Shown: positions 35,345 to 63,457 of the stretch, in pieces
How the letters are laid out: each line of letters starts with the position of its first letter
Position numbering within the stretch: position 1 is the stretch's first letter
Sequence record: PV357171.2
Reading direction: 5' to 3' (one strand)
Origin: a phage
Length of the DNA stretch: 64,000 nucleotides
Notes under the pieces: generated by a model
Told to the model about the DNA's origin: nothing
Databases searched by the model: none
Seen by the model: only the letters and a program-made list of their open reading frames with translations
Translations under genes and position numbers: made by a program

Positions 35345-35582
35345 TTTCTTTAATCAATTCTCCTAATTCTCTATAGATTTGATCTAACTCAAAAGATATA
35401 CGTAGTGATATGCTTTGCTTTCTCTGCTTTAGCAACCATGCGCCTATGCCATTTATGGATGCTAGTCTAGCAGGAACCACCCTACATAGCTTCTCCGAAG
35501 TATCATAAACAGGAACTTTGCGTTCTTTTACTGGAAACTTCCTTGTTTCCCATTTTTTATTCTTCACTGTCATTTCTAGCAC
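35322..35582 (-). CDS. hypothetical protein
   Basis: 86-aa ORF overlapping neighbours. Confidence 0.35.
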   Translation of the reverse strand: MLEMTVKNKKWETRKFPVKERKVPVYDTSEKLCRVVPARLASINGIGAWLLKQRKQSISLRISFELDQIYRELGELIKENDNTGRG

Positions 35583-38346
35583 CTAGCTCTGACATTGCTT
35601 CCTCGTGCATCTGACGTTCTTCCTCTGTCATGAATTTGAAAGGAATTGGCATACACTCGATTTTACAATAGGTTCTGTACCAGTCTACGATATTCTCCGT
35701 GTTCATATCTTTACCAATACCCATCATACCAAGATACATTCTAGCATATTTTGGGTTAGCACTCTGACCTGTTTTAAGGAAGAAATCTTTCTTCTTACCT
35801 TTCAGAGCTTCTATGAAAGGTTTGATAGTGACATTTGAACACTTCTTAATATCTTCCCAGAACATCTCATGCATCTTATGGAAGAATGCAGCTCGATCAT
35901 TCGGCTTATCTTTGATATATTGTTCAACATGCTCAACGGTTACATCTTTAATAGACTCCAGATGATAATAGCGAACAAGAAGTAGTTTAGCTTCATACGC
36001 ATCCGCATGACGTGGAGCACAATAATCAGGAGTTGAGTGCAGAATAGCTTTGATTCGCTCTTCTGTATACTCTTTACCAGCACCTTCAATAGTTCCCCAG
36101 CTTTCACTGAAAATATCAATAGTTGCACCCTGATCAAGTAAGTAATAACGTAAAGTACTAGTATAGTTCCTAGATTCCAGCTCCCTGCGACGTGCGTATA
36201 ATTGCTGTGCTAACTCCAGCCAACCCTCATCAATATTATATTGTTCAGAACCTGCGGAGAATCCACTAGTGGATTTATCAATAAAATAATAGATATTCTG
36301 AGCACCACGGTCGCGCCTGATTGCTTGGAAACGCATGTTTGGCGCTTGATTACTGGTTCTAGTAATAACAAATACGTTATCAAAATAGTTGAAGTCAACT
36401 CCACTCGTTACGGATGGACTACATAATAAGCAATCAATTTGTTGATCAATTAGCTCATTAGTTGTATAATCCAGAATACGTCGAATATCCACATCTGAGG
36501 TAGAGTTTGAATGGATTTCCTTAACTAACGCACCCGTATTACGACGCAGTGCCATACCCTTCTCATTCAGTTCATCCGGTCCACAGTCAGATACTAGGAT
36601 AGATTTTTCACCCATCTCTAGAGATGTCTGAAGTGCAACCCAAATACTGGATTCATCCGGGAACTCATAAGCATGAGCTTTTGATAGCATTTTACGGTGA
36701 TGATTATAGAATGCAACTGGTTTATCGAACTCAATCAAAGAACCATATGCTTCAATTGTTTCAGCACTAATATCACCATCTGATAGTATAATGATTTTTG
36801 CAGTTGCAAGAATATCACGAAGAACCTGAATACACTCACGACGTTGTTTAACAACCGGGGCGAATAATAGGTCATTCATTACTGCATCACATTCATCGAT
36901 AAAGATTGCATCAATTTGACCAATAAAACTCTTGAACTTATGCAAAGAGTGAATAGTTGTGGACATACGGTCAATAGCACCACGCTTAAAATTAAGCATA
37001 TCTACAGACTTATCATATTGTCCTGCACTAAATTTCTTGGCATTTGAAGACACCAGTGCTCTAGTATTGGTAATTGCTAAGAAATTACCTTTAATAACTC
37101 CTGAATCCAGCCAACGAACAACAGCCGTTGTTTTACCTGTGCCTAGACTTGCTTTTACAAAAGTCATATAGCCTTCTGGTGGTACAGTATTTAATTTCAA
37201 GAAGTTGTCGGTCTCTAGTGAATTAGTTTCTAGCTTTTTAAGTGGAATACCTTTTAAAATATCCGGTATATCACGTTTAGAATTATTAACAAACGCTTTC
37301 AGAGCCTGCTTACGACCGTTGTTAAAGTAATCTTGAATATTACGACTATTATCTTTAGTTGCAATATATTCTGATAAGGCTGGACGGATTTCTTTTTCTA
37401 GCCATGCGAAGTCAACACCATCCTCTAAAGCTCTGTGATAGAGTTTAGGTATGATACGTAGGTACACTCCATCCTCAGCTTCTTCTAGTTCGCTGATAGT
37501 TTCCTCTACTTTATCAGAGGCAGCTTTTTTACCTTTAATTTGATCGAGTAAAGAGTAAAACTCCTCTTTAAACTCACCTCTAGTTGTTTCATAATCAACT
37601 AGATTATTGGGTAAGTTTACCTTAGAACCCTTAACAAATACCAGACGTGAAGCACCCTCCGCTTTAAACGGATCTACTATACCATCATTAAATAACGGAT
37701 CTGCAAAATAATGGAGCTGTACGGAAGAGTAATAAGCTAAGTCGGCAATATCAAAGCCATACTTTTGTCTACTACTTTCGTTGATAGATGTAAATAAGAA
37801 TTTGATTTGACCCTGAGTCACTTTAATATTAGATTCTAGTATTAAGTGCATTCGGATACCTGGTTTTAGCCCGGCCGAAGACGATGCATGAGCGATAAAC
37901 CCTGCATCAAGAGGAAACATATCCTCACTAATACTATTTAACATTCTAATAATATGTCGAGCCATGCCAACAAGATCAAACTTGTTACAACCACCTGTAT
38001 CTACAATACCATCCACGTCCATTGCGATTATATGACTTGGGTTAGATACATTAAAGTTGCCCTTCTTACGTCGCACATTATTTTTAGGTGCAAGACATCG
38101 ACCTCGTACCGCAACGATATGAGGGTCAGACGTTAAACGTCTCATAAGAGGAAGCATTTCTACTAGGGTTTGAGGATCAACTTCATCAATTACATCAAAC
38201 TTGAAGGGCATTGAAGCTGGTTTACCTTCAGGATGCTTTGAGGAAAATCTTTTAGCAAAAAGATAATCTTCTGCTTTAACTTCTCGCCAATTACCTGTGG
38301 CTAAATCGCGATGAAATCCTGCATGACCTTGTAGGATTGAGAACAC
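35557..38346 (-). CDS. replication origin-binding-protein-like SF2 helicase/ATPase
   Basis: Walker A (ASLGTGKTTAV), DExx-like box (FIDECDA), about 930 aa; probable GTG start at 38346 seven nt after AGGAG (ORF track extends to 38424 with TTG). Confidence 0.55.
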   Translation of the reverse strand: MFSILQGHAGFHRDLATGNWREVKAEDYLFAKRFSSKHPEGKPASMPFKFDVIDEVDPQTLVEMLPLMRRLTSDPHIVAVRGRCLAPKNNVRRKKGNFNVSNPSHIIAMDVDGIVDTGGCNKFDLVGMARHIIRMLNSISEDMFPLDAGFIAHASSSAGLKPGIRMHLILESNIKVTQGQIKFLFTSINESSRQKYGFDIADLAYYSSVQLHYFADPLFNDGIVDPFKAEGASRLVFVKGSKVNLPNNLVDYETTRGEFKEEFYSLLDQIKGKKAASDKVEETISELEEAEDGVYLRIIPKLYHRALEDGVDFAWLEKEIRPALSEYIATKDNSRNIQDYFNNGRKQALKAFVNNSKRDIPDILKGIPLKKLETNSLETDNFLKLNTVPPEGYMTFVKASLGTGKTTAVVRWLDSGVIKGNFLAITNTRALVSSNAKKFSAGQYDKSVDMLNFKRGAIDRMSTTIHSLHKFKSFIGQIDAIFIDECDAVMNDLLFAPVVKQRRECIQVLRDILATAKIIILSDGDISAETIEAYGSLIEFDKPVAFYNHHRKMLSKAHAYEFPDESSIWVALQTSLEMGEKSILVSDCGPDELNEKGMALRRNTGALVKEIHSNSTSDVDIRRILDYTTNELIDQQIDCLLCSPSVTSGVDFNYFDNVFVITRTSNQAPNMRFQAIRRDRGAQNIYYFIDKSTSGFSAGSEQYNIDEGWLELAQQLYARRRELESRNYTSTLRYYLLDQGATIDIFSESWGTIEGAGKEYTEERIKAILHSTPDYCAPRHADAYEAKLLLVRYYHLESIKDVTVEHVEQYIKDKPNDRAAFFHKMHEMFWEDIKKCSNVTIKPFIEALKGKKKDFFLKTGQSANPKYARMYLGMMGIGKDMNTENIVDWYRTYCKIECMPIPFKFMTEEERQMHEEAMSELGARNDSEE

Positions 38347-38843
38347 AACAATACTCCTGTGTTGGAAATGAAATAAGTTTTCTTTAGGACTATTCAGAAA
38401 GAATAGAACAACTGTTACTGTCAATTTCTCAACAAATTAATCGCAAATACTGAAGTGGGGTGGCAACTTCCACTTTCACGCTACACTGCCGCTTCACTAT
38501 ACCGCACAAATCCTTGAGGATGGCCGCTAAGCCAGATTTGCTCACCTAATGCTTCATGTACTAGCTCATACTAGATGCAGTATACCTTACGTCATCACTT
38601 CTCAGAGTTTTTCACTCTTCCCGTCTCACTTCACAACCACCTCACACTAGGTTGCTTCGAGGCCTTACCAGGGTTCCTACGGGGTGTAGATCGCTAAGTA
38701 TTCTATTAACTATTTGTTTAAAAACTAACACGTAACAGTTAAAACAACCCTTAATGGGGCAGCCTAACTGTTCCGTATCGCGGATTGTAAACAAGAAAAA
38801 TTAGCAAAATCAGTTTTTACTAATGTCTCTCAATTATGGGAAT

Positions 38844-38881: not shown

Positions 38882-39334
38882 TTACTGGATTGATTCCCTA
38901 CCGTATAATTGACCTCTAAACATCTTGGCCATAGAACATGCAACCTCATAGTTATCATATGTTCCTTTAACTATACGTTTACGGTTAATAGTAAATACTA
39001 CTTGCCAGTTCTTACTACCAGAAGGGTAAACATGCATTCCTTTCTTATACTTGATATTTCTTAGATTACCGGATACTGTCTGCTCTCTAAGATTTTCAAT
39101 ACGATCATCACCTTTTACAGTATTCACATGATCTACTAAATCAGGTAAGTATCCGTGATGCATTAAGAAGATAGCTCTGTGTCGGAGCATAGTTCTACTC
39201 CCTAGAGAAATACGGTAATAACCATTTCCCGTTGAAACACAACATTCCTTGCCTGCATTTCTTCCTGTAGTTCTAAATAATTTTCCATCTTCATATCGGA
39301 AATTATCTAAAAGTTCCTGTTGTGTGAGCGACAT
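38882..39334 (-). CDS. HNH homing endonuclease
   Basis: HNH motif (HRAIFLMHHGYLPDLVDHVN....DDRIENLRE); start at ATG 39334 after GGAGG. Confidence 0.65.
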   Translation of the reverse strand: MSLTQQELLDNFRYEDGKLFRTTGRNAGKECCVSTGNGYYRISLGSRTMLRHRAIFLMHHGYLPDLVDHVNTVKGDDRIENLREQTVSGNLRNIKYKKGMHVYPSGSKNWQVVFTINRKRIVKGTYDNYEVACSMAKMFRGQLYGRESIQ

Positions 39335-39473
39335 CTTTACCTCCAATACATATATTATTACATAATCCACCCAATTTGTCAATGACAATTTATTCATACT
39401 GTCAATTAACTGGAAAGATTATATAATAATCCGAGCCAAAATGACTCGGTAGTCAGAGTTCAGCTAATAAAAA

Positions 39474-39866
39474 TCATTCATCATTCAGACCTGGAACATA
39501 GATCCCAACATGGTTTAACTGTTCTTTAGCTTCTTTGAGAATATCTGGAGTGTACTCCCAAATATCATCTTCCACCTGTAAAAGATGGGGCGAACAACCA
39601 TCATCAGGCATACGACATATAGCCAAACCACGTGGATGGAACAAAGAGAAATTTAGGGCAACAATTAAACCCATAGCAGACAACTCATTCCAATCCAATT
39701 CCCATTCCCTAGCGTAGCCTGATAGGAAAACACCAATACAGGGATCGTCTATTTGCTGCTCCGGAAAAGTGAAGGAGGCTTGTCTTACCCCCAACCAACG
39801 TTGTAGCAGCTTCTCCGCACGCTTCACCAAACTAGGATCAATCTGACGCCAATATACTTGTTCCAT
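39474..39866 (-). CDS. hypothetical protein (paralog of adjacent ORF)
   Basis: Shares PCIG...W.EL.EMGL..ALN..LF.P block with 39876..40304. Confidence 0.45.
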   Translation of the reverse strand: MEQVYWRQIDPSLVKRAEKLLQRWLGVRQASFTFPEQQIDDPCIGVFLSGYAREWELDWNELSAMGLIVALNFSLFHPRGLAICRMPDDGCSPHLLQVEDDIWEYTPDILKEAKEQLNHVGIYVPGLNDE

Positions 39867-39875
39867 TCTGCCTCC

Positions 39876-40304
39876 TTAAGCAGTTAAATCTGGGATCATA
39901 TACCCGAAACGTCGAAGTTTCTGAATCCCCTCATTTACTTCTTCCGGTGAATAAGACCAACCATAACGTTCATTAACCTGAAAACCAGGAGATTCACTAG
40001 TTTTATAGTTAACAACTAGGCGATGCTTAGCAGGCATAAACAGCTTATAATTTAACGCAAAAACTAAGCCCATTTCATCTAACTCTTTCCAGCCTACAAT
40101 CTCTTCAAGACCCTCCTCTACCTGAACAATTAAACCAATACAGGGGGCCTCATCAATATCATCTTTAAAAGCAAAGGAGATTTCATTATTCTCACACCAT
40201 ATTTTCAAGGAGTTAATAGCCTCATTATACAGGCTAGCTGGGAGAGTACGCCAAAAGTTAATCAAAATTGGATTAGCTTCTTTAGAGAATACATTATTGA
40301 ACAT
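39876..40304 (-). CDS. hypothetical protein (paralog of adjacent ORF)
   Basis: Tandem paralog of 39474..39866. Confidence 0.45.
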   Translation of the reverse strand: MFNNVFSKEANPILINFWRTLPASLYNEAINSLKIWCENNEISFAFKDDIDEAPCIGLIVQVEEGLEEIVGWKELDEMGLVFALNYKLFMPAKHRLVVNYKTSESPGFQVNERYGWSYSPEEVNEGIQKLRRFGYMIPDLTA

Positions 40305-40306
40305 AT

Positions 40307-40813
40307 TTACACCTTAAATTGTTGTAAGGATTTACACATTTCAAGATCTGGGCTAAATTCTAGCATATAGCTAACAGCTTTTAAATCTTGAAGATTTATC
40401 CCAGTCCTACCGTTGACTATAACCGTTGGATACTGATACATCATAGCACCCGCATCATCAAGCACACACCAATGTTTGAGCTTATGCTTTTCAACGAAAC
40501 GAAGAACAGAATTACCCCTAGATAATCCACCCCCCGTAAAATCCGTTGTACCAAGAAAACGATCGATAAGACCTAATCCGGTCATAATCTGAACGTTCTC
40601 CATCTCATTTCTAACAGAGAACCAAGATGATACCCCAACAATCATTATCGGAGAAGGACGAATAAAATCCTGAAAAGCCTTGAGAAGCGGTTTGAAAACC
40701 CAGTCACTTCCAAAGAAAATCTTTTCATTATCAGGTGCATGATGGTGGGAGATGCTCGAATTGAGCACCCCATCAATATCTAGAAAAATAATTGGAGTAT
40801 TACTTATTTCCAT
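40307..40813 (-). CDS. HAD-superfamily phosphatase-like protein
   Basis: N-terminal motif I FLDIDGVLN (DxDGxL-type). Confidence 0.5.
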   Translation of the reverse strand: MEISNTPIIFLDIDGVLNSSISHHHAPDNEKIFFGSDWVFKPLLKAFQDFIRPSPIMIVGVSSWFSVRNEMENVQIMTGLGLIDRFLGTTDFTGGGLSRGNSVLRFVEKHKLKHWCVLDDAGAMMYQYPTVIVNGRTGINLQDLKAVSYMLEFSPDLEMCKSLQQFKV

Positions 40814-40982
40814 TTTTGTTCCTTTCTAAGAACGTATCATACTCAACCGTATCAACATATATGACGCCATAGTCATCGGATTTATAGTCCATTTCCCATA
40901 ACTCACATCGATAGCACCAACTACCATCTGCCCATACAAATATATCATCGGGATGTGTATATACAGATTTAACTATGGACAT
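40800..40982 (-). CDS. hypothetical protein
   Basis: 60-aa ORF overlapping neighbours. Confidence 0.3.
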   Translation of the reverse strand: MSIVKSVYTHPDDIFVWADGSWCYRCELWEMDYKSDDYGVIYVDTVEYDTFLERNKNGNK

Positions 40983-41805
40983 ATCTGTTTACCTTGCTTC
41001 TCGACACATAAGGTCTACCCTCTAAATGAGCTTCTACACGAGCAATAAAATCAGGATCACTGAAAGCATCTACCGCACCTTTACTCCAGTAAGGGATACC
41101 ACGTTCTTCCAGCTGGTACATCTCACTACGAGTCATACCTTGATAGCCCGGTTCTGCCGCTAGGCCACTATCATAGTAGTTAACAACCATAAGTTTCGCA
41201 GCAGTCAAATTAAGAACAGGAAATAATTCCCAGTAGAAGTTAATTACTTGGTTAGAGCAACCAACCACAATGATCATATCTTGACTGGTAATACCATCAA
41301 AAACATTATACATTTCTGCGTATGCAGGAGCATGTTCTCCAAAGAAGATTACATTAGGTTTAACCCATTTATAATCATCTGGATCAATAGAATTATACCC
41401 TACATCAATAATCCGTTTATTGCTACTATTGTAGCTATCAGCTACAACAACCTCTTTTAAATATCCGTGAATGTGCAGAATGTCACTATGTGGAACACCA
41501 GCACGCTCAATAAGGTCATCAACGTTGGTAGTCAAGTTTACTACTTGACCTGGGTATTGTTTATACCATTCACCAATACGCAAATGCGCAAGATTGGGTT
41601 CAACAGTTTTTAGCTCTTCACGACGCTTGTTGTAAAACATATGGGTTTTATGATAAAAATTACCACGAAAGGCATGAATATTACATACTTCTTCTAGATC
41701 ATAATCATCCCACAATGCTTTACCACTAGCAGTATCAGTACGGAAGGCTCGTACACCACTTTCAACGCTCAAACCTGCACCGCTAATAATAATTAATCTA
41801 CGCAC
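40969..41805 (-). CDS. Sir2-family (sirtuin-like) NAD-dependent protein
   Basis: GAGLSVESGVRAFR (sirtuin GAGIS..SGIP.FR), TTNVDDLIERAG, HIHG catalytic His, VIFFGE and VVGCS blocks; no Zn-ribbon cysteines. Confidence 0.65.
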   Translation of the reverse strand: MRRLIIISGAGLSVESGVRAFRTDTASGKALWDDYDLEEVCNIHAFRGNFYHKTHMFYNKRREELKTVEPNLAHLRIGEWYKQYPGQVVNLTTNVDDLIERAGVPHSDILHIHGYLKEVVVADSYNSSNKRIIDVGYNSIDPDDYKWVKPNVIFFGEHAPAYAEMYNVFDGITSQDMIIVVGCSNQVINFYWELFPVLNLTAAKLMVVNYYDSGLAAEPGYQGMTRSEMYQLEERGIPYWSKGAVDAFSDPDFIARVEAHLEGRPYVSRSKVNRYVHS

Positions 41806-42561: not shown

Positions 42562-44388
42562 TTACTTAAGATTTAAGTGTTTTACTCTACCAAGTACTTC
42601 TTTTTGTTTCCCAGAATTGAAAGGCCTACTGCCCGGGGATCCCAGGTACCCGCAAACCCTACGTGTAACCTCTATTTCTTCAGATCCACAACTCGGACAT
42701 ACAAACCCACGTTCAGAGGCAACAGATTCACCCATATACCCACAGTTGAAGCACTCATCAATTGGTATATTAACACCAATATAATGACTACATTCTAGTC
42801 CCTTATCTACTACGTATTCAAGAGCTTTATGGAACTTTTTCATTTGTGGTAGTTCCACAAACGATATATTACCACCATTAGCTATTTTGGTGAAATGAGC
42901 TTCATACTCAAATTTAGTATCCGGAGCTACCTTCTCCCTTACGTCCAAATGATGACTATTAGTGAGATAGCCTTTATCTGTTAGCCAAGAATACTCAGGG
43001 AACCTACGTTCCAGTAGTTTATTAAAGCGATTACATAGAGACTCACTAGGAGTAGCATACAAGCTAAACCCAAGATTAGTCTCATTAGCTTTAACTTCGC
43101 AACGATTTTTTAGGTGAGTAAGAACTTCCTCTGTAAATTCAATACAGTCCCTATGAGTCTGCGGTAAACTAAACATTATTTGGCACATCTCATAGACCCC
43201 AATATACCCAAGAGATACAGAAGATCTACCCTCAAAAATTGGCCATACATACTCTTCCCTATCTAAACGCACACCAAAACCACCGTGCATATAAAGAATA
43301 GGGGCTTGTTTAGCCTTCACTTTCTTAAGTCTATCCAAGAAAAAATCATGAGCTTCAAAAGCCTCATCCACATATTTGTCCAGAATATCCCAGAAATCTT
43401 CAAAAACCCCATCTGCCTCAGCAGCAACCATAGGTAGATTAATAGACACTACACCTAAATTATTGCGCCCTGCAATTTCTCCGGAGGGGATAGCAGATAA
43501 AAAGCTACGACAACCCATAGGGGCTTTAAAATCACCAGTAACAGCTATAACTTTCTCATAGCTTAAATAGTCTGGGTACATACGGGTAGCAGAACACTCA
43601 AGTGCTAGCTGTTTTATATCATAGTTAGGATCGCCTGGATTTTTATTTAACCCTTCTTTAACTGAGAATACTAGTTTAGGGAAGATAGGGGTTGACTCGG
43701 CAGCACCTAAACCTTTAATACGATTTTGGAGGATGGCTTTCTGAATCATCCTTTCCTCCCACTCCTGACCTAATCCAAAGCCAAGCGTAACAAAAGGGGT
43801 CTGCCCGTTAGAGTTAAATAATGAATTAGTTTCATACTCTAGAGCTTGGAATGCATCATAACACTCTTTTTCAGTAAGCTCAGTAGCATACACAGCAGCT
43901 TTTCTTTCATCCTTGAGCCAACGTAGCCCACGACCCAGATGTTTATTGTAAGACTTTCTGACATACGGGGCTAGAACCTCGTCGATACGATCAATAGAGG
44001 TACCACCATACTGAGCACCAGATACTTGGGCAATAATCTGAGCAGTGATTGCACATGCAGTAGTTATGGATTTAGGAGTTTCAATATTTGCATTACCGAT
44101 TTTAGTACCATTCTTCAGCATGCCCCCCAGATCTACTAAACAACAGTTGGTGTACCCTTGTGCTCTGTAGTCCATGTCATGAATGTGTATTTTACCTAGA
44201 TTATGCGCGTCTAACAGGTGTTTAGGTAATTCTTGCGATACTAAATACTTGTTAATTTCCCCAGCTAATAAGTCCCTTTGAGTATGGAACATCTCACTAG
44301 GCTTATTAGCATTATTATGTTGTAAGTCTTTATCCGCAGTTAGAGTGAGCAGACCTTTGCAATTTTCAATTAATTCATTCTCTGTCAT
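42562..44388 (-). CDS. nrdD: anaerobic ribonucleoside-triphosphate reductase (class III)
   Basis: C-terminal CxxC...CxxC zinc site (CFNC...CPSC) and glycyl-radical motif RVCGYLGS. Confidence 0.8.
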   Translation of the reverse strand: MTENELIENCKGLLTLTADKDLQHNNANKPSEMFHTQRDLLAGEINKYLVSQELPKHLLDAHNLGKIHIHDMDYRAQGYTNCCLVDLGGMLKNGTKIGNANIETPKSITTACAITAQIIAQVSGAQYGGTSIDRIDEVLAPYVRKSYNKHLGRGLRWLKDERKAAVYATELTEKECYDAFQALEYETNSLFNSNGQTPFVTLGFGLGQEWEERMIQKAILQNRIKGLGAAESTPIFPKLVFSVKEGLNKNPGDPNYDIKQLALECSATRMYPDYLSYEKVIAVTGDFKAPMGCRSFLSAIPSGEIAGRNNLGVVSINLPMVAAEADGVFEDFWDILDKYVDEAFEAHDFFLDRLKKVKAKQAPILYMHGGFGVRLDREEYVWPIFEGRSSVSLGYIGVYEMCQIMFSLPQTHRDCIEFTEEVLTHLKNRCEVKANETNLGFSLYATPSESLCNRFNKLLERRFPEYSWLTDKGYLTNSHHLDVREKVAPDTKFEYEAHFTKIANGGNISFVELPQMKKFHKALEYVVDKGLECSHYIGVNIPIDECFNCGYMGESVASERGFVCPSCGSEEIEVTRRVCGYLGSPGSRPFNSGKQKEVLGRVKHLNLK

Positions 44389-45046
44389 TGATTATTTCCT
44401 CGATAAACCTTGCTACTATTTCTGGCTCAATACTAAAAAATTCTGTAGCACCATCAAAATCTTTGTACTGACAATTATATTCCTTAAACTGTAAATGGGC
44501 CTCTCTTTCAATACGCATAGCTTTTGATCTATCTGAAAAGCTATATTCCTTAAATATTTTTAAATCATGTATGTTAGAAGAAGTTTTAATATCTCTGAGT
44601 CTATCTTTAGTTCTGCTAGACACCCCTATTTTGGTTCCCACACTACTTATTAAAATATATACGTTAGTAGGATAATTATCCTTCTCTAATAAACATATAG
44701 GACAACCAGAATTATGATTTCTAACACTATCAAGTGTAGACTCCCATCTATGATTATTCTCACAGCTGAACATAATTTTACTCTTAGAATTGATGTATTT
44801 ACCTTCCATCTTTATTCCACGAGCAGCTAAGGATTCATTTACCTCTTTAAGATCTAAAGTACGACTAGCACAATAAGGGCAACCTCTCCCACCTTTTACA
44901 TTATCTACTCTAGCCTCCCAGATATGTCCATTAGAGCACTTAAATACAGCATTGGATTTAGCTGATATATACGTGCTTAGCATAATTATTCCTCTGGGAG
45001 CAAGTGTTAAGTTCACATCTTCTGTAGTTATTTTCTTTCTTACCAT
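44375..45046 (-). CDS. T5orf172/GIY-YIG-like domain protein with N-terminal duplicated zinc ribbons
   Basis: Two C..H...C..C repeats, then NVYILISSVGTKIGVS..R block resembling the T5orf172 (GIY-YIG superfamily) domain. Confidence 0.5.
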   Translation of the reverse strand: MVRKKITTEDVNLTLAPRGIIMLSTYISAKSNAVFKCSNGHIWEARVDNVKGGRGCPYCASRTLDLKEVNESLAARGIKMEGKYINSKSKIMFSCENNHRWESTLDSVRNHNSGCPICLLEKDNYPTNVYILISSVGTKIGVSSRTKDRLRDIKTSSNIHDLKIFKEYSFSDRSKAMRIEREAHLQFKEYNCQYKDFDGATEFFSIEPEIVARFIEEIINDRE

Positions 45047-59463: not shown

Positions 59464-59535
59464 CGGGGTGTAGTCTAAGGGAGAGGCAGGAGTCTTCTAA
59501 ATTCCTTTATGCAGGTTCGAATCCTGTCACCTCGG
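59464..59535 (+). tRNA. tRNA-Arg (anticodon UCU)
   Basis: Hand-folded cloverleaf: acceptor CGGGGTG / CACCTCG, D-stem GTCT / AGGC, anticodon stem GGAGT / ATTCC with loop CTTCTAA, T-arm GCAGG-TTCGAAT-CCTGT, CCA encoded. Confidence 0.75.
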
Positions 59536-59572
59536 CCAATTTTATTAACTGTAGCTAAAACAAAGGAAATAT

Positions 59573-60520
59573 ATGTTTAATACTAAAAATATGAAAGAAC
59601 TGACTTCTGAGCAGAAAGTAATTCGTACTATTAAACGTTGGGGTATTGGTGCTGTAGTTGGTTTAGCAGGTTTAATCCTAGCTTTTAATTCATATACTGT
59701 TGTTCAAGACGGTACTGTTAAAACCCAGACTTTCCTGGGTAAAGTTGACCCTAGCCCAGTATTACCCGGCTTTCATATTGTAAATCCTTTTGCTTCTTTC
59801 GATACTTTTAGTACTAAAGATATTGCCCTAAAATTAGATAAACTTCAGGTTCCTAGCCAGGATAAGTTTAAATCCACTGTTGACCTGACTGTTATGTTGC
59901 AGTTTGATGGTTCTAAGGCACCAATTAACCGTATTAACGCAGGTACTCAGGATCAGGCGTTAGACAAGTATGTAACTGAAAAATTACTGTCTACTATTCG
60001 TGAGTTTGGTAAGTCTGTACCTAAAGCACAAGATTTGTTTGATGCTAAAATTCAGGCTCAATTGCAAACTGCAATTCAACAGGAAGTTGAAGAGTATGCA
60101 CGCCCATATGGTTACACAGTTAAGCAGGTATTCCTTCAGGATATTACTTTGCCACCGGTAATCATGGAACAGGTACAGAATACCAAAGTTCGTGAAGAGC
60201 AAGTTAATGCTGCGAAAGCTGAACTGGCCCGCGTTGAACAAGAAGCGCAGCAAAAGGTTAAACAAGCAGAAGCAGACCGTGAAGCTCGCAACAACCAAGC
60301 TATTGCTAATGAACGTGACGCAGATGCTAAACTGTACGCAGCTAAGAAAGAAGCTGAAGCTAACGCCGCATTGCAACGTACCATTACTCCTGAGATGATT
60401 CGCTGGAAGCAACTGGAAGTTGAAATGCTTCGTGCTGAAAAATACCAAGGTGGTGTACCGCAAACAGTAGTGGGAACTGGTTACGATGGCCAGATGATCA
60501 TGGATATGCGTAATAAGTAA
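59573..60520 (+). CDS. SPFH/band-7 (HflK/C-like) domain membrane protein
   Basis: N-terminal TM helix, then SPFH-type core and Ala/Glu/Gln-rich coiled coil; 315 aa. Confidence 0.5.
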   Translation: MFNTKNMKELTSEQKVIRTIKRWGIGAVVGLAGLILAFNSYTVVQDGTVKTQTFLGKVDPSPVLPGFHIVNPFASFDTFSTKDIALKLDKLQVPSQDKFKSTVDLTVMLQFDGSKAPINRINAGTQDQALDKYVTEKLLSTIREFGKSVPKAQDLFDAKIQAQLQTAIQQEVEEYARPYGYTVKQVFLQDITLPPVIMEQVQNTKVREEQVNAAKAELARVEQEAQQKVKQAEADREARNNQAIANERDADAKLYAAKKEAEANAALQRTITPEMIRWKQLEVEMLRAEKYQGGVPQTVVGTGYDGQMIMDMRNK

Positions 60521-60544
60521 TATCCGCATGTAATCTCTGAAGTA

Positions 60545-60582
60545 AGCCCTGTGTTCCCTGGAGAGCGCAGGGCTTTTCTGTA
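60545..60582 (+). terminator. rho-independent terminator
   Basis: Stem AGCCCTG / CAGGGCT with structured loop, then TTTTCTGTATTT. Confidence 0.55.
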
Positions 60583-60725
60583 TTTAAGGCAAAAGAAAAA
60601 GCCCATAAGTTATTCAACTAAGGTCTTTAGTATTTAATTCTTTAGAATCATATAATATTATTGCAGCAACAACGTGCTAACCTTAAGTGCCCTGCAATTT
60701 TCCTCTAAAAAGTTAAAAAATTCGA

Positions 60726-60754
60726 TTGCTTGAATGCTAAATTCTCTGTATAAT
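60726..60754 (+). promoter_or_regulatory. early promoter
   Basis: TTGCTT, 17 bp, TATAATATATTTATAAATTTGAGAGAGG. Confidence 0.65.
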
Positions 60755-60784
60755 ATATTTATAAATTTGAGAGAGGAATCAAAT

Positions 60785-61840
60785 ATGATTAAGACTGGTC
60801 TAGTAATTGGTAAGTTCGCACCATTAACGCGTGGTCATATTAACCTAATAAACACAGCAGCAACTATGTGTGAACGAGTTATTGTTGTAGTTAGTCATGA
60901 TAATCGTTGGCTGGATAAGCAGAACACACGTGATCAGGAAGTATTACAGTTAAAGAATCGACTTCGTTGGTTAGAACAAACTTACGCGGATATTGAGCAC
61001 ATTTCGGTAGAGTACATTATTGAAGATGATATTCCTGAATATCCGAATGGTTGGCCGGAATATGCTAGAATCCTTAATGAAAATTACGGACATTTGCCTG
61101 AGATCACCGTTTTCTCTAGCGAACTAGACTATGATGCAGAATATAAGAAATATCTGCCGAAGTTTGGTCATTATATTGTAGATTCTGATCGGACTCGTGT
61201 TCCAATCTCAGCTACAATGATTCGTAATGATCTTATGAAGTATTGGGAGTTTCTTCCTAGCTTAGTTCGTAAAGATTACGTGCGTAAGGTTGTAATCATT
61301 GGGACTGAAAGCTCGGGAAAGACTACTTTAACAAAATACCTTGCGAAGCTATACAACACTTCGTGGGTAGAAGAATATGGCCGAACGTATTGTGAAGTTG
61401 ATCTAGTTGGTAACGAAAATCTACTTACCAGTGAAGATTACAGTAAAATTGCGTTCAGACACAAAGAGCTAGAGTTTGAAGCAGAACGTACTGCAAATAA
61501 GATCATGTTTGTGGATACAAATGCTTTTATTACTGAGTTCTACCACAGACTTTATGAACATAGTAAGAACCCTGTGGTTACAGCAATTGCAAAAGTAGAA
61601 CATTACGATTTAGTAATTGTTCTAGCGCCTACTGTCAAGTGGGTAGATGATGATTTACGTATTAACTCCGATCGTTCAATTACTTCTGAACTGTTCGAGC
61701 AGATGAAGAAAGAATTTCCAAATCAGTTCCCTGAAGGGCGTACTGTTTACATCGACTCTCCGGACTACAAAGTTCGTATGGACGAAGCAGTAAACGCAGT
61801 AGACTGGCTGATTCATCACTTTAACGTTGGAGAGTTTTAA
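60785..61840 (+). CDS. nadR: NadR-like bifunctional NMN adenylyltransferase / ribosylnicotinamide kinase
   Basis: N-terminal GKFAPLTRGH (nucleotidyltransferase H/T-x-G-H) and C-terminal P-loop IGTESSGKTTL; ATG at 60785 after GAGAGG. Confidence 0.6.
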   Translation: MIKTGLVIGKFAPLTRGHINLINTAATMCERVIVVVSHDNRWLDKQNTRDQEVLQLKNRLRWLEQTYADIEHISVEYIIEDDIPEYPNGWPEYARILNENYGHLPEITVFSSELDYDAEYKKYLPKFGHYIVDSDRTRVPISATMIRNDLMKYWEFLPSLVRKDYVRKVVIIGTESSGKTTLTKYLAKLYNTSWVEEYGRTYCEVDLVGNENLLTSEDYSKIAFRHKELEFEAERTANKIMFVDTNAFITEFYHRLYEHSKNPVVTAIAKVEHYDLVIVLAPTVKWVDDDLRINSDRSITSELFEQMKKEFPNQFPEGRTVYIDSPDYKVRMDEAVNAVDWLIHHFNVGEF

Positions 61841-61841
61841 T

Positions 61842-62519
61842 ATGACTAACTATCTCGTAAATGACTTTAAAAACTGGAAACCTCTGGAATATCTGTGGCT
61901 GCTCATAGCGGTTGTCTTCATTAGTTTAGCAAACTATAATGGTACAGCTCTAGATTGGGCTACTGCAATAACCAATGTGGTTTGTGTTATTCTGGTTGCA
62001 AAAGGACGTGTTTCCAACTATATTTGGGGCTTAGTGGGTGTTCTTACATATGGTATTACAGCTTTAAACGCAGATCTTTATGGTAACGCTGCACTAAACC
62101 TGCTATACTACGTTCCTATGCAGTTTTATGGAATGTACTTATGGCATAAAAATAAACCAAGTAATCTGCCAGACGTTCCAACTAAGGTTCTGACTAAAGC
62201 TCAGGCTTTATTAACTCTTGGGATTCTAGCAGTAGCTACTCTAGGCTATGGCAGCTTCCTCGCTACCACAGCAGATCCGTTCCCAATGCTCGATGCATTT
62301 ACTGCGGTTGGTAGTGTAATTGCTATGTGGCTTATGGTCAAGCAGTATGCTGAACAATGGCTAATCTGGATTGCCATTAATATTGGTACTGTATACATTT
62401 GGTTTGTAACTGCTCAGTCTACAGGTGCTTCTTATGCAATCCTAGCAATGTGGCTGGTATTCTTTGGTAACTCTGTACTTGGAGCCTATAAAGGGTACTT
62501 TGTACGCGTTAACAAATAA
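61842..62519 (+). CDS. pnuC: PnuC-like nicotinamide riboside transporter
   Basis: About 226 aa, multiple predicted TM helices, Trp-rich motifs; immediately after NadR-like gene; ATG at 61842 after GGAGAG. Confidence 0.55.
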   Translation: MTNYLVNDFKNWKPLEYLWLLIAVVFISLANYNGTALDWATAITNVVCVILVAKGRVSNYIWGLVGVLTYGITALNADLYGNAALNLLYYVPMQFYGMYLWHKNKPSNLPDVPTKVLTKAQALLTLGILAVATLGYGSFLATTADPFPMLDAFTAVGSVIAMWLMVKQYAEQWLIWIAINIGTVYIWFVTAQSTGASYAILAMWLVFFGNSVLGAYKGYFVRVNK

Positions 62520-62526
62520 AATAGTT

Positions 62527-62552
62527 ATAGCCCTCAAAGCGAGGGCTATTAT
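62527..62552 (+). terminator. hairpin, terminator-like
   Basis: 9-bp stem ATAGCCCTC / GAGGGCTAT, loop AAAGC; weak U-run. Confidence 0.4.
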
Positions 62553-62566
62553 CCAGAAAATTTCAC

Positions 62567-62595
62567 TTGCTAAATGCCGAGATTTTCTGTATAAT
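62567..62595 (+). promoter_or_regulatory. early promoter driving tRNA pair
   Basis: TTGCTA, 17 bp, TATAATATATTTATAAATT. Confidence 0.65.
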
Positions 62596-62609
62596 ATATT
62601 TATAAATTC

Positions 62610-62701
62610 GGAAGATTAACCCTAATTGGTAAGGGAGCATCTTGCTAAGTTGCCAGTAGCTGTGGAAACACGGTGTATCGGTTCAAGTCCGATATCTTCC
62701 T
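62610..62701 (+). tRNA. type II tRNA, probably tRNA-Ser (anticodon GCU)
   Basis: Perfect 7-bp acceptor GGAAGAT / ATCTTCC, T-arm ATCGG-TTCAAGT-CCGAT, anticodon loop TTGCTAA, long variable arm with GAAA-capped stem, CCA encoded. Confidence 0.55.
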
Positions 62702-62709
62702 CCAAATTT

Positions 62710-62784
62710 GGTTCTCAAGCTCATTTGGTATGAGCCGTCGCCTCATAAGCGAAAGGTAGGTAGGTTCGAATCCTCCGGGAGCCA
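62710..62784 (+). tRNA. tRNA with CAU anticodon (Met, or Ile if lysidine-modified)
   Basis: Acceptor GGTTCTC / GGGAGCC (two G-U), D-stem GCTC / GAGC, anticodon loop CTCATAA, T-loop TTCGAAT, CCA encoded. Confidence 0.65.
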
Positions 62785-62804
62785 CCAGATAACTAGGAGA
62801 CTTT

Positions 62805-62993
62805 ATGTCACGCTTTCACGAAATTAAGCAAGAACTGGAAGAACTCGCCTGTCCTGAATGCTTTGGGACAGGTGAATGGAATGATGCTGAACCCGGGGAT
62901 ACGCGGTTTAACACTTACGTTTGCACTCACTGTGAAGGTACTGGTGTAAACCCTCTTTACACTATTTCTCTTTTTGTAGGGGTTGCTAAATAA
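62805..62993 (+). CDS. small zinc-ribbon protein
   Basis: 62 aa with CPEC...CTHC. Confidence 0.4.
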   Translation: MSRFHEIKQELEELACPECFGTGEWNDAEPGDTRFNTYVCTHCEGTGVNPLYTISLFVGVAK

Positions 62994-62999
62994 TGCACT

Positions 63000-63347
63000 T
63001 TGAAGATGATGAAAAAAGAAGCGTTCTACACTGTCCCAGCAATTAATCTGCTCGGTACTGTACTATTTCAGATTAAGTTCTACCTGCGAGACGACTACAC
63101 TGAAGTGGTAAACGCTATTGTACCTGAGTTCTTCGTAAATAATTTCCAAAAGGACTTTAAGTTCTTTATTGATGATGTTTACGATGGTGTGGTTGATCCG
63201 GCAGTAGCTCCAGCTATATACAATGTATTTAATTCTCTGCCAGATCTAGATTTTGATCTAGGACTTATTGAGTCTGGTGAGATTATCTGGGCACTTAATG
63301 TTCCAGTGACTGGATTCCCTGGTTGGCTGCAAGGTTACGAACTCTAA
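63000..63347 (+). CDS. hypothetical protein
   Basis: 115-aa ORF. Confidence 0.4.
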   Translation: MKMMKKEAFYTVPAINLLGTVLFQIKFYLRDDYTEVVNAIVPEFFVNNFQKDFKFFIDDVYDGVVDPAVAPAIYNVFNSLPDLDFDLGLIESGEIIWALNVPVTGFPGWLQGYEL

Positions 63348-63355
63348 CAAAATTT

Positions 63356-63438
63356 GGATCTGTGGTGGAATTGGCAATACACACCATGCTTAAAACGTGG
63401 CGCTTAAATGATTGAGGGTTCGAGCCCCTCCAGATCCA
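63356..63438 (+). tRNA. type II tRNA-Leu (anticodon UAA)
   Basis: Perfect 7-bp acceptor GGATCTG / CAGATCC, anticodon stem CCATG / CGTGG with loop CTTAAAA, T-arm GAGGG-TTCGAGC-CCCTC, CCA encoded. Confidence 0.75.
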
Positions 63439-63457
63439 CCAAATTAAGGAAGTAAAA

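Follow-up and report, generated by a model that had tools for sequence, protein, structure and literature searches.

Two small, adjacent genes on the minus strand of a phage genome raise the question of what a duplicated pair of early proteins is kept for. They lie in a 64,000-nucleotide stretch of sequence record PV357171.2 (hereafter the window; all positions are those of the whole stretch), and a sequence-only reading of the window had placed them correctly, with the right lengths, and had taken them for an old tandem duplication of fast-evolving host-interaction factors:

39,876–40,304, minus strand: gene of 142 amino acids, the upstream and diverged paralogue; a DUF7415 protein, orthologue of T5p104 (T5.106), with 91% amino-acid identity to T5p104.
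39,474–39,866, minus strand: gene of 130 amino acids, the downstream and canonical paralogue; a DUF7415 protein, orthologue of T5p105 (T5.107), with 95% amino-acid identity to T5p105.

The 3.1 kb around the pair is 95% identical to Escherichia phage JLBYU40 and 92–96% identical to many other Tequintavirus genomes, and the two open reading frames (ORFs) are the T5p104 and T5p105 orthologues of a Tequintavirus: plain members of their groups, in the same genomic place and with no distinguishing difference. They are already catalogued, as T5 hypothetical proteins since the genome was annotated and now as members of Pfam DUF7415 and phrog_2502, and are no new element. Here we show that they are full-length paralogues, that both are under purifying selection and that they close an early operon; we then consider a tentative answer to the question of their role, namely that DUF7415 is a binding module and the pair acts together.

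An old pair under purifying selection

Compared by BLASTP with composition-based statistics, the 130- and 142-residue proteins share 31% identity over 124 residues (expectation value (E) 3e-18). The Smith–Waterman score of the pair is 150, as against 27.7 ± 4.7 in 2,000 shuffles (z = 26), so the paralogy claimed from the letters is real and not a similarity of composition only, the one outcome that had been named as speaking against it. The motif PCIG...W.EL..MGL..ALN..LF.P is indeed present in both ORFs. The similarity is not, as had been proposed, limited to this core: the N-terminal halves of the pair match each other (z = 13) as do the C-terminal halves (z = 18), and only the cross comparisons of an N-terminal with a C-terminal half are at noise level. 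The two ORFs are thus paralogues over their full length.

In a tblastn search, the 142-residue protein was found at 1,039 places in 526 phage records, that is, in two copies in almost every record. About 520 Demerecviridae genomes retain the pair, and the records range over Tequintavirus, Epseptimavirus (~75% identity), Yersinia phage phiR2-01 (67%) and Klebsiella Sugarlandvirus (34%). The gene order in Sugarland is that of the window, with gp118, of the diverged type, upstream and gp117, of the canonical type, downstream. Neighbour joining groups gp118 with the T5p104 clade and puts gp117 on the canonical side of the tree, together with the T5p105 clade and gp086 of Pectobacterium phage DU_PP_V (Mccorquodalevirinae), which has one canonical copy only. 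Because Sugarland keeps both types in the same order, each placed accordingly in the tree, and DU_PP_V has a single copy, the duplication predates the split between Markadamsvirinae and Sugarlandvirus. There is no nucleotide-level repeat in the pair region, which fits the old duplication that had been suspected. Phage DT57C has kept both paralogues although it has lost most of the Sir2-like gene and the whole HAD phosphatase gene that lie upstream of them.

The second half of the earlier interpretation, fast evolution in contact with the host, fared differently. We estimated the ratio of nonsynonymous to synonymous substitution rates (dN/dS) by the Nei–Gojobori method against six relatives, a comparison across related phages that had been suggested with the original claim. 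The ratio is 0.07–0.13 for the 142-residue gene and about 0.06–0.23 for the 130-residue gene where dS is informative, with one noisy value of 0.47 at dS = 0.05. Because the informative comparisons are all this low, both genes are under purifying selection and not in an arms race, and a pair of fast-evolving host-interaction factors is not supported. What does hold is that protein divergence is faster in the pair than in the neighbouring genes: the pair proteins are 75% and 72% identical to those of Eps7, as against 91% for the HAD protein, 91% for the D2 helicase and 84% for the Sir2-like protein. The variable part consists of the N-terminal module and a loop with insertions and deletions, whereas the C-terminal module and the C-terminal helix are 78–84% conserved within each clade and the core signature of the 130-residue protein is nearly invariant across hosts.

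The pair consists of the last two, translationally coupled genes of an early operon whose other products include a Sir2-like protein and a HAD-family phosphatase, and the claim of such neighbours in the early region is borne out by profile searches. The features that define this arrangement are the following:

39,871–39,875, minus strand: Shine–Dalgarno sequence GGAGG between the stop codon of the 142-residue gene and the ATG of the 130-residue gene, read from the sequence.
39,431–39,449, minus strand: terminator-like hairpin with an 8-bp stem, 25 nucleotides past the stop codon of the 130-residue gene.
40,307–40,813, minus strand: HAD-family phosphatase (HAD_SAK_2; Pfam E 7e-20), orthologue of T5p103; upstream neighbour in the same operon.
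40,969–41,805, minus strand: Sir2-like gene (Pfam SIR2 E 8e-25; phrog_2162 E 5e-121); farther upstream along this string of genes.

The stop codon of the HAD gene is 2 nucleotides from the ATG of the 142-residue gene, and a 9-nucleotide spacer separates the two paralogues, with the ATG of the 130-residue gene 4 nucleotides past GGAGG. Annotations of T5, Eps7 and phiR2-01 show the same spacing between the pair genes, and that of phiR2-01 carries a ribosome-binding-site feature there. The hairpin is probably the end of the operon; in Sugarland, a terminator is annotated at the corresponding place. We read the pair as a translationally coupled operon end because of the 2-nucleotide gap, the GGAGG-bearing spacer, the hairpin and a promoter-like site that belongs to the HNH endonuclease gene beyond it. 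In the direction of transcription, the minus-strand order is a T5orf172-type endonuclease-like ORF, nrdD, three small ORFs, the Sir2-like gene, a 60-residue ORF, the HAD phosphatase, the 142-residue ORF, the 130-residue ORF, the HNH endonuclease and the D2 helicase gene, whose product is annotated in related phages as binding the replication origin. We take this gene block to belong to the early class of T5 genes. No RNA family was found in the pair region.

The DUF7415 domain and its two forms

Both proteins score far above the Pfam gathering cut-off of 27 bits for DUF7415 (PF24187), with 108.2 bits for the 130-residue and 123.1 bits for the 142-residue protein. Both also match phrog_2502 end to end (residues 1–129 on profile positions 4–134, E 7.6e-61, and residues 11–142 on positions 2–134, E 1.2e-61, respectively); NCBIfam gave no match for either. 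A word-indexed search returned only T5-like relatives of the pair. When 1.84 billion representative proteins were searched exhaustively by profile, there were 155 matches, about twenty of them full-length proteins with both modules; nearly all the rest cover only profile positions ~55–115, a single domain of 55 residues. Its signature is (I)DWNxLSxxGL(I)x(R)INxE(I)LHPxGLAxxRxPxTGxSxGxLVxxDGxWxY; across 134 sequences, N20 is invariant, and G14, S40, G28, L15, H25, G38, P26, A30 and S11 are present in 90–99%. When a set of 5.8 billion proteins was searched by profile, 418 matched, and the best 120 of these are all single-domain proteins of 62–102 residues from Aeromonas, Enterobacter, Citrobacter, Photobacterium and metagenomes. 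Multi-stretch profile matches to giant repeat proteins (P0055, P0093 and others) were rejected as Ig-like or low-complexity artefacts.

The C-terminal module of each pair protein corresponds to the Pfam domain, and we compared the two with a canonical profile of 59 columns built from 60 diverse single-domain sequences:

39,552–39,701, minus strand: canonical DUF7415 module of the 130-residue protein, residues 56–105 (DWNELSAMGLIVALNFSLFHPRGLAICR...GCSP...DDIWEY); 84.6 bits to the canonical profile.
39,960–40,100, minus strand: diverged C-terminal DUF7415 module of the 142-residue protein, residues 69–115; 52 bits to Pfam DUF7415 and 37.7 bits to the canonical profile.
40,101–40,265, minus strand: N-terminal module of the 142-residue protein, residues 14–68 (W, helix, three strands); 71.8 bits alone to Pfam DUF7415.

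The module of the 130-residue protein keeps all the nearly invariant sites (W7, N8, S11, G14, L15, N20, H25, P26, G28, L29, A30, R33, G38, S40, D48, W51 and Y53), whereas the 142-residue protein retains only W7, G14, L15, N20, P26, S40, W51 and Y53 of the signature. The replacements fixed in the T5p104 clade relative to the T5p105 clade are N to K or R, S to D or E, H to M, G to K or N, L to H, A to R and R to V or I. These are fixed differences between two conserved clades and not decay, and they indicate that a retained pair has diverged in function.

Pfam reports two DUF7415 stretches in each pair protein, and each half alone scores 51–72 bits. The halves are also predicted to share an order of elements, namely W, helix or helices and a β-hairpin. 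In direct comparison, an hhalign profile of the N-terminal half is at best colinear with that of the C-terminal half or the canonical profile (P = 0.016, probability 3%), and pairwise comparisons with shuffles give z ≤ 1. The Pfam seed may contain both kinds of segment.

Structure prediction of both proteins, which had been proposed as a check on the pair, gave confident models of one topology. The AlphaFold2 model of the 130-residue protein has a mean predicted local distance difference test score of 91.7 and a predicted template modelling (TM) score of 0.85; the corresponding values for the 142-residue protein, in which residues 1–11 are disordered, are 87.7 and 0.81. Both models run strand, helix, three strands, two helices, two strands, helix. 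Foldseek searches of the Protein Data Bank (PDB) with the two models returned nothing significant (best E 0.28 and 0.56, TM ≤ 0.32), PDB sequence searches with the 142-residue protein and with the 60-sequence domain profile gave noise only, and in BFVD the only matches are DUF7415 proteins. The modelled α/β architecture of the pair is therefore without a detectable relative in the PDB. Matches to GAF domains and to type III secretion system chaperones were rejected at TM ≤ 0.32. The class I chaperones of that system (CesT, ExsC, STM2138) have a like size, acidity and order of elements (α, three β, α, two β, α) and are the top, non-significant Foldseek matches to the 130-residue model (E 0.56–1.5, TM 0.22–0.27, root-mean-square deviation 13–15 Å). 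With no superposition, sequence similarity or secretion-system context, this is a resemblance and not a supported relationship.

The pair proteins are acidic, with an isoelectric point (pI) of 4.6–4.7 and a net charge of –8 to –10, and two-module DUF7415 proteins as a whole have a pI of 4.2–4.7 and a net charge of –8 to –14; the median pI of single-domain proteins is 4.85. These single-domain relatives occur in P2-, lambda- and T4-like phages (phiCTX orf7, Aeh1p318 and PKO111_081, the last between nrdD and nrdG). They share the signature with the C-terminal module of the 130-residue protein, and both kinds are early and acidic. The T5-type proteins differ from them in length (~130–160 rather than 62–100 residues), in an extra N-terminal module and a C-terminal helix, and in forming a tandem pair of a canonical and a diverged copy.

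Fusions and neighbours of DUF7415 and a possible role of the pair

What the domain is joined to, or lies beside, in other genomes points, where it is informative, to nucleotide and nucleic-acid metabolism and to replication modules. Fusions recovered in the exhaustive search join DUF7415 to the dATP/dGTP pyrophosphohydrolase PF04447 (two proteins), thymidylate kinase and DUF3850/ASCH (two), and in single cases to Cox, DUF551, PGDYG and a ClpX zinc finger. Among 58 non-T5-like IMG/VR loci, gathered with a 10-sequence alignment, 24 encode stand-alone proteins, 13 carry a phrog_24212 N-terminal domain, 6 an exonuclease, 6 DUF3850/ASCH and 9 other extensions, counts that are not of independent events, as related P2-like prophages dominate the set. 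The exonuclease partner is an Rv2179c-like 3'–5' exoribonuclease (Pfam E 2e-61). In an Enterobacter prophage, an RNase_T-family exonuclease gene is the preceding called gene, ~400 bp upstream of DUF7415, and in Aeromonas prophages, DUF3850 lies two genes downstream of DUF7415, and its protein shares 49% identity with the N-terminal portion of the fusion found in a P2 isolate. Exonuclease and DUF3850 are thus Rosetta-stone pairs with DUF7415, fused in some phages and separate, neighbouring genes elsewhere. The P2-like prophage loci that pair DUF7415 with an exonuclease or ASCH domain are L016 (5021–6198), L013 (6001–6934) and L008 (2743–3195) and, from IMG/VR, L053, L057–L059, L064 and L069.

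One further fusion class, of 185 residues, places the phrog_24212 domain, with an EExGE-like motif, before DUF7415 (IMG/VR loci L076, L081, L082, L086, L096 and L100). Its gene lies just after the P2-type replication gene A and before a gene for a 233-residue protein with a DPPY motif. Pfam, PHROGs and PDB sequences identified neither the N-terminal domain of this class, beyond its phrog_24212 assignment, nor the 233-residue protein, which has no Pfam match. The EExGE-type motif suggested a MazG-like domain, but the same three resources gave no confirmation, and we make no such claim.

Neighbourhoods point in the same direction as the fusions. In Jiaodavirus (T4-like Klebsiella phages), a DUF7415 gene of 72 codons lies between nrdD and nrdG; in GAP161, the gene is two genes downstream of nudE; and in Aeh1, it ends the string frd, td, a HAD_SAK_2 homologue, nrdA.1, denA and rnlA. 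The Aeh1 string and the T5-type operon thus place the HAD family and DUF7415 together in one operon in two unrelated groups of phages. In P2-like prophages, DUF7415 comes directly after replication gene A in 22 of the 58 IMG/VR loci, amid DNA methyltransferase and PAPS-reductase genes, and in the window, the pair lies between nrdD and the D2 helicase gene. DUF7415 is thus recurrently and physically linked to enzymes of nucleotides and nucleic acids and to replication modules.

On this evidence, we favour, tentatively and with somewhat less than even confidence, the reading that DUF7415 is a non-enzymatic binding module and that the T5 pair acts together in the service of nucleotide supply or replication-linked nucleic-acid processing. 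The domain is most likely not an enzyme, because it has only ~55 residues and its conserved Gly, Pro, Asn and Ser residues sit mostly at helix caps and turns. It would dock onto phage nucleotide or nucleic-acid enzymes early in infection, or bring a ligand or partner to them, and the candidate processes are deoxynucleoside triphosphate (dNTP) supply, replication-linked nucleic-acid processing and DNA modification. The two proteins have presumably been subfunctionalized and most likely act jointly, plausibly in a hetero-oligomer, where the ancestral contact would fall to the canonical module and the role of adaptor or modulator to the diverged copy. DUF7415 may be likened to the ATP-cone of ribonucleotide reductases and NrdR, likewise a small, mobile, non-catalytic module that occurs alone or fused to enzymes and in ribonucleotide-reductase operons. 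The ATP-cone is a four-helix bundle with a hairpin; DUF7415 has no sequence or fold relationship to it and no ATP-cone match in Pfam. A more specific form of the favoured reading, which we consider rather unlikely, would make DUF7415 a previously unrecognized fold that acts as sensor or adaptor for a nucleotide, a modified nucleotide or a nucleic acid and is plugged into hydrolases, kinases and ribonucleotide-reductase operons; a heterodimer of canonical T5.107 and pseudo-domain T5.106 would then, early in infection, link the replication machinery with dNTP supply or nucleic-acid processing.

Several observations weigh against a role tied to nucleotides and replication. The fusions to Cox, DUF551 and the ClpX zinc finger do not share the theme, the IMG/VR counts carry the dependence described above, and proximity is weak evidence because nucleotide-metabolism genes abound in the early regions of T4- and T5-like phages. 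The domain also occurs between the small and large terminase subunits, in phiCTX between head and tail genes (P2 L-like and X-like) and, on a plasmid-like prophage, close to ParM, three settings unrelated to nucleotide metabolism that look like 'moron' insertion slots; in another context it is near rIIA and rIIB. The idea of an internal duplication comes from the Pfam model, whereas the profile–profile comparison (best P ~0.016) and the shuffles (z ≤ 1) do not bear it out, and the hetero-oligomer is deduced solely from co-retention, fixed gene order and translational coupling. Finally, no paper in the library searched, nor the supplement of the CRISPRi-ART T5 screen, mentions DUF7415, T5p103–105 or T5.105–107; a 2026 T5 deletion study concerns pre-early genes only.

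The moron-like scatter of the single-domain relatives over insertion slots in unrelated operons is also what would be expected of the strongest competitor, which we regard as doubtful but worth weighing: that the proteins are anti-defence or host-takeover factors that inhibit, by binding, a conserved host protein such as a restriction or immunity component, with the pair broadening or tuning the range of targets. Early expression, small size and a pI of 4.2–4.7 would suit such proteins, as would an amino-acid divergence faster than that of the neighbouring enzymes, and the P2-like prophage copies lie amid DNA methyltransferases, typical anti-restriction territory. The dN/dS values, however, are well below 1, there is no hypervariable surface, and phages of hosts as different as Aeromonas, Pseudomonas, Vibrio and enterobacteria share a nearly invariant signature, which speaks for a partner or ligand that is itself conserved. 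Recurrent fusion to nucleotide and nucleic-acid hydrolases and kinases would be unexpected for a stand-alone inhibitor, and the PADLOC defence-system library gave no match for the pair proteins at E ≤ 1.

If the module instead had no specific ligand, it could be a generic oligomerization or scaffold domain that dimerizes its fusion partners, and the T5 proteins could be covalent pseudo-dimers acting as structural adaptors. This would agree with the Pfam matches in both halves of each protein, with their common predicted order of W, helix and β-hairpin, with fusion partners that are commonly dimeric enzymes and with conserved residues that are mostly Gly, Pro, Asn and Ser at turns. We nevertheless find it improbable: in hundreds of stand-alone proteins of 62–100 residues the domain is all there is, a solitary existence for which a pure dimerization tag has no need, and direct tests do not establish homology between the N- and C-terminal halves.

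The location of the pair directly upstream of the D2 helicase gene, and of DUF7415 directly downstream of gpA in the P2-like loci, could also reflect a DNA-binding regulator of replication or transcription, to which the single Cox fusion and a putative helix-turn-helix-like segment, 'S..GL...IN', read by eye from the sequence, would add. We give this little credence, as the acidity of both two-module and single-domain proteins is unfavourable for DNA binding, Pfam and NCBIfam searches found no helix-turn-helix or other DNA-binding family, and there is no fold match to DNA-binding proteins.

The names in some GenBank records, 'tail tube protein' for the 130-residue and 'exonuclease' for the 142-residue protein, are almost certainly wrong: Pfam, PHROG, NCBIfam, PDB-sequence and fold searches support neither, no tail-tube family or fold was matched in Pfam, PHROGs, PDB or BFVD, no nuclease domain (DEDD or other catalytic motif) was matched in Pfam, PHROGs or NCBIfam, and the genes, a long way from the structural ones, belong to an early operon situated between nrdD and the D2 helicase gene. 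Where a genuine Rv2179c-like exonuclease domain does occur, it is always a distinct domain joined to DUF7415 in a protein of another phage, and the 'exonuclease' name was probably transferred from such proteins.

Surrounding genes and the value of the pair

Immediately beyond the operon, between the 130-residue gene and the D2 helicase gene, lies an HNH homing-endonuclease ORF (HNH_3, phrog_99; 38,882–39,397, minus strand) with its own sigma-70-like promoter (11 of 12 positions matched; 39,382–39,354, minus strand). It is present in JLBYU40 and 8sent1748, and it looks like a mobile insertion outside the operon unit because it is missing at that position in T5, Eps7 and DT57C. The D2 helicase ORF itself was called mechanically at 35,557–38,424 (minus strand) with a TTG start and 955 residues. 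The true start is probably internal to this ORF, as annotated orthologues have 929 residues and align over 929 codons from position 38,346.

On the upstream side, the C-terminal half of the HAD_SAK_2 protein matches phrog_18062, which is labelled 'Sir2' in PHROGs, and RefSeq records name the HAD gene 'Sir2 (NAD-dependent deacetylase)'. Because phrog_18062 bears that label, the name looks like a propagated annotation error. The Sir2-like gene proper is eroding in some relatives: a remnant of 90 residues is left in DT57C (locus L022, 4226–4498), and the gene is split into two coding sequences in Eps7 (locus L020, 2865–3679), with the DUF7415 pair intact in both phages.

Further upstream, an ORF of 223 residues (44,375–45,046, minus strand) overlaps the start of nrdD (42,562–44,388, minus strand) and combines a treble-clef zinc finger (DUF4379), a CapR homology domain and a T5orf172/MUG113 (GIY-YIG-like) domain. 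The nrdD protein is 99% identical to that of DT57C and ~61% identical to those of JLBYU40, Eps7 and phiR2-01; two very different nrdD alleles therefore circulate among phages that are otherwise ~95% identical, possibly exchanged together with the endonuclease. Elsewhere in the window, four tRNA genes (Arg-tct, Ser-gct, Met-cat and Leu-taa; 59,464–63,441, plus strand) are part of a T5-type tRNA cluster.

For the family as a whole, these results give an uncharacterized domain, present in well over a thousand phage and prophage genomes, a concrete handle in the form of a predicted fold, a 55-residue signature, a pair of canonical and diverged copies and a set of fusions. They also correct the misleading database names 'tail tube protein' and 'exonuclease'. 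Since T5 genetics exist, T5.106 and T5.107 are a tractable entry to the function of the family.

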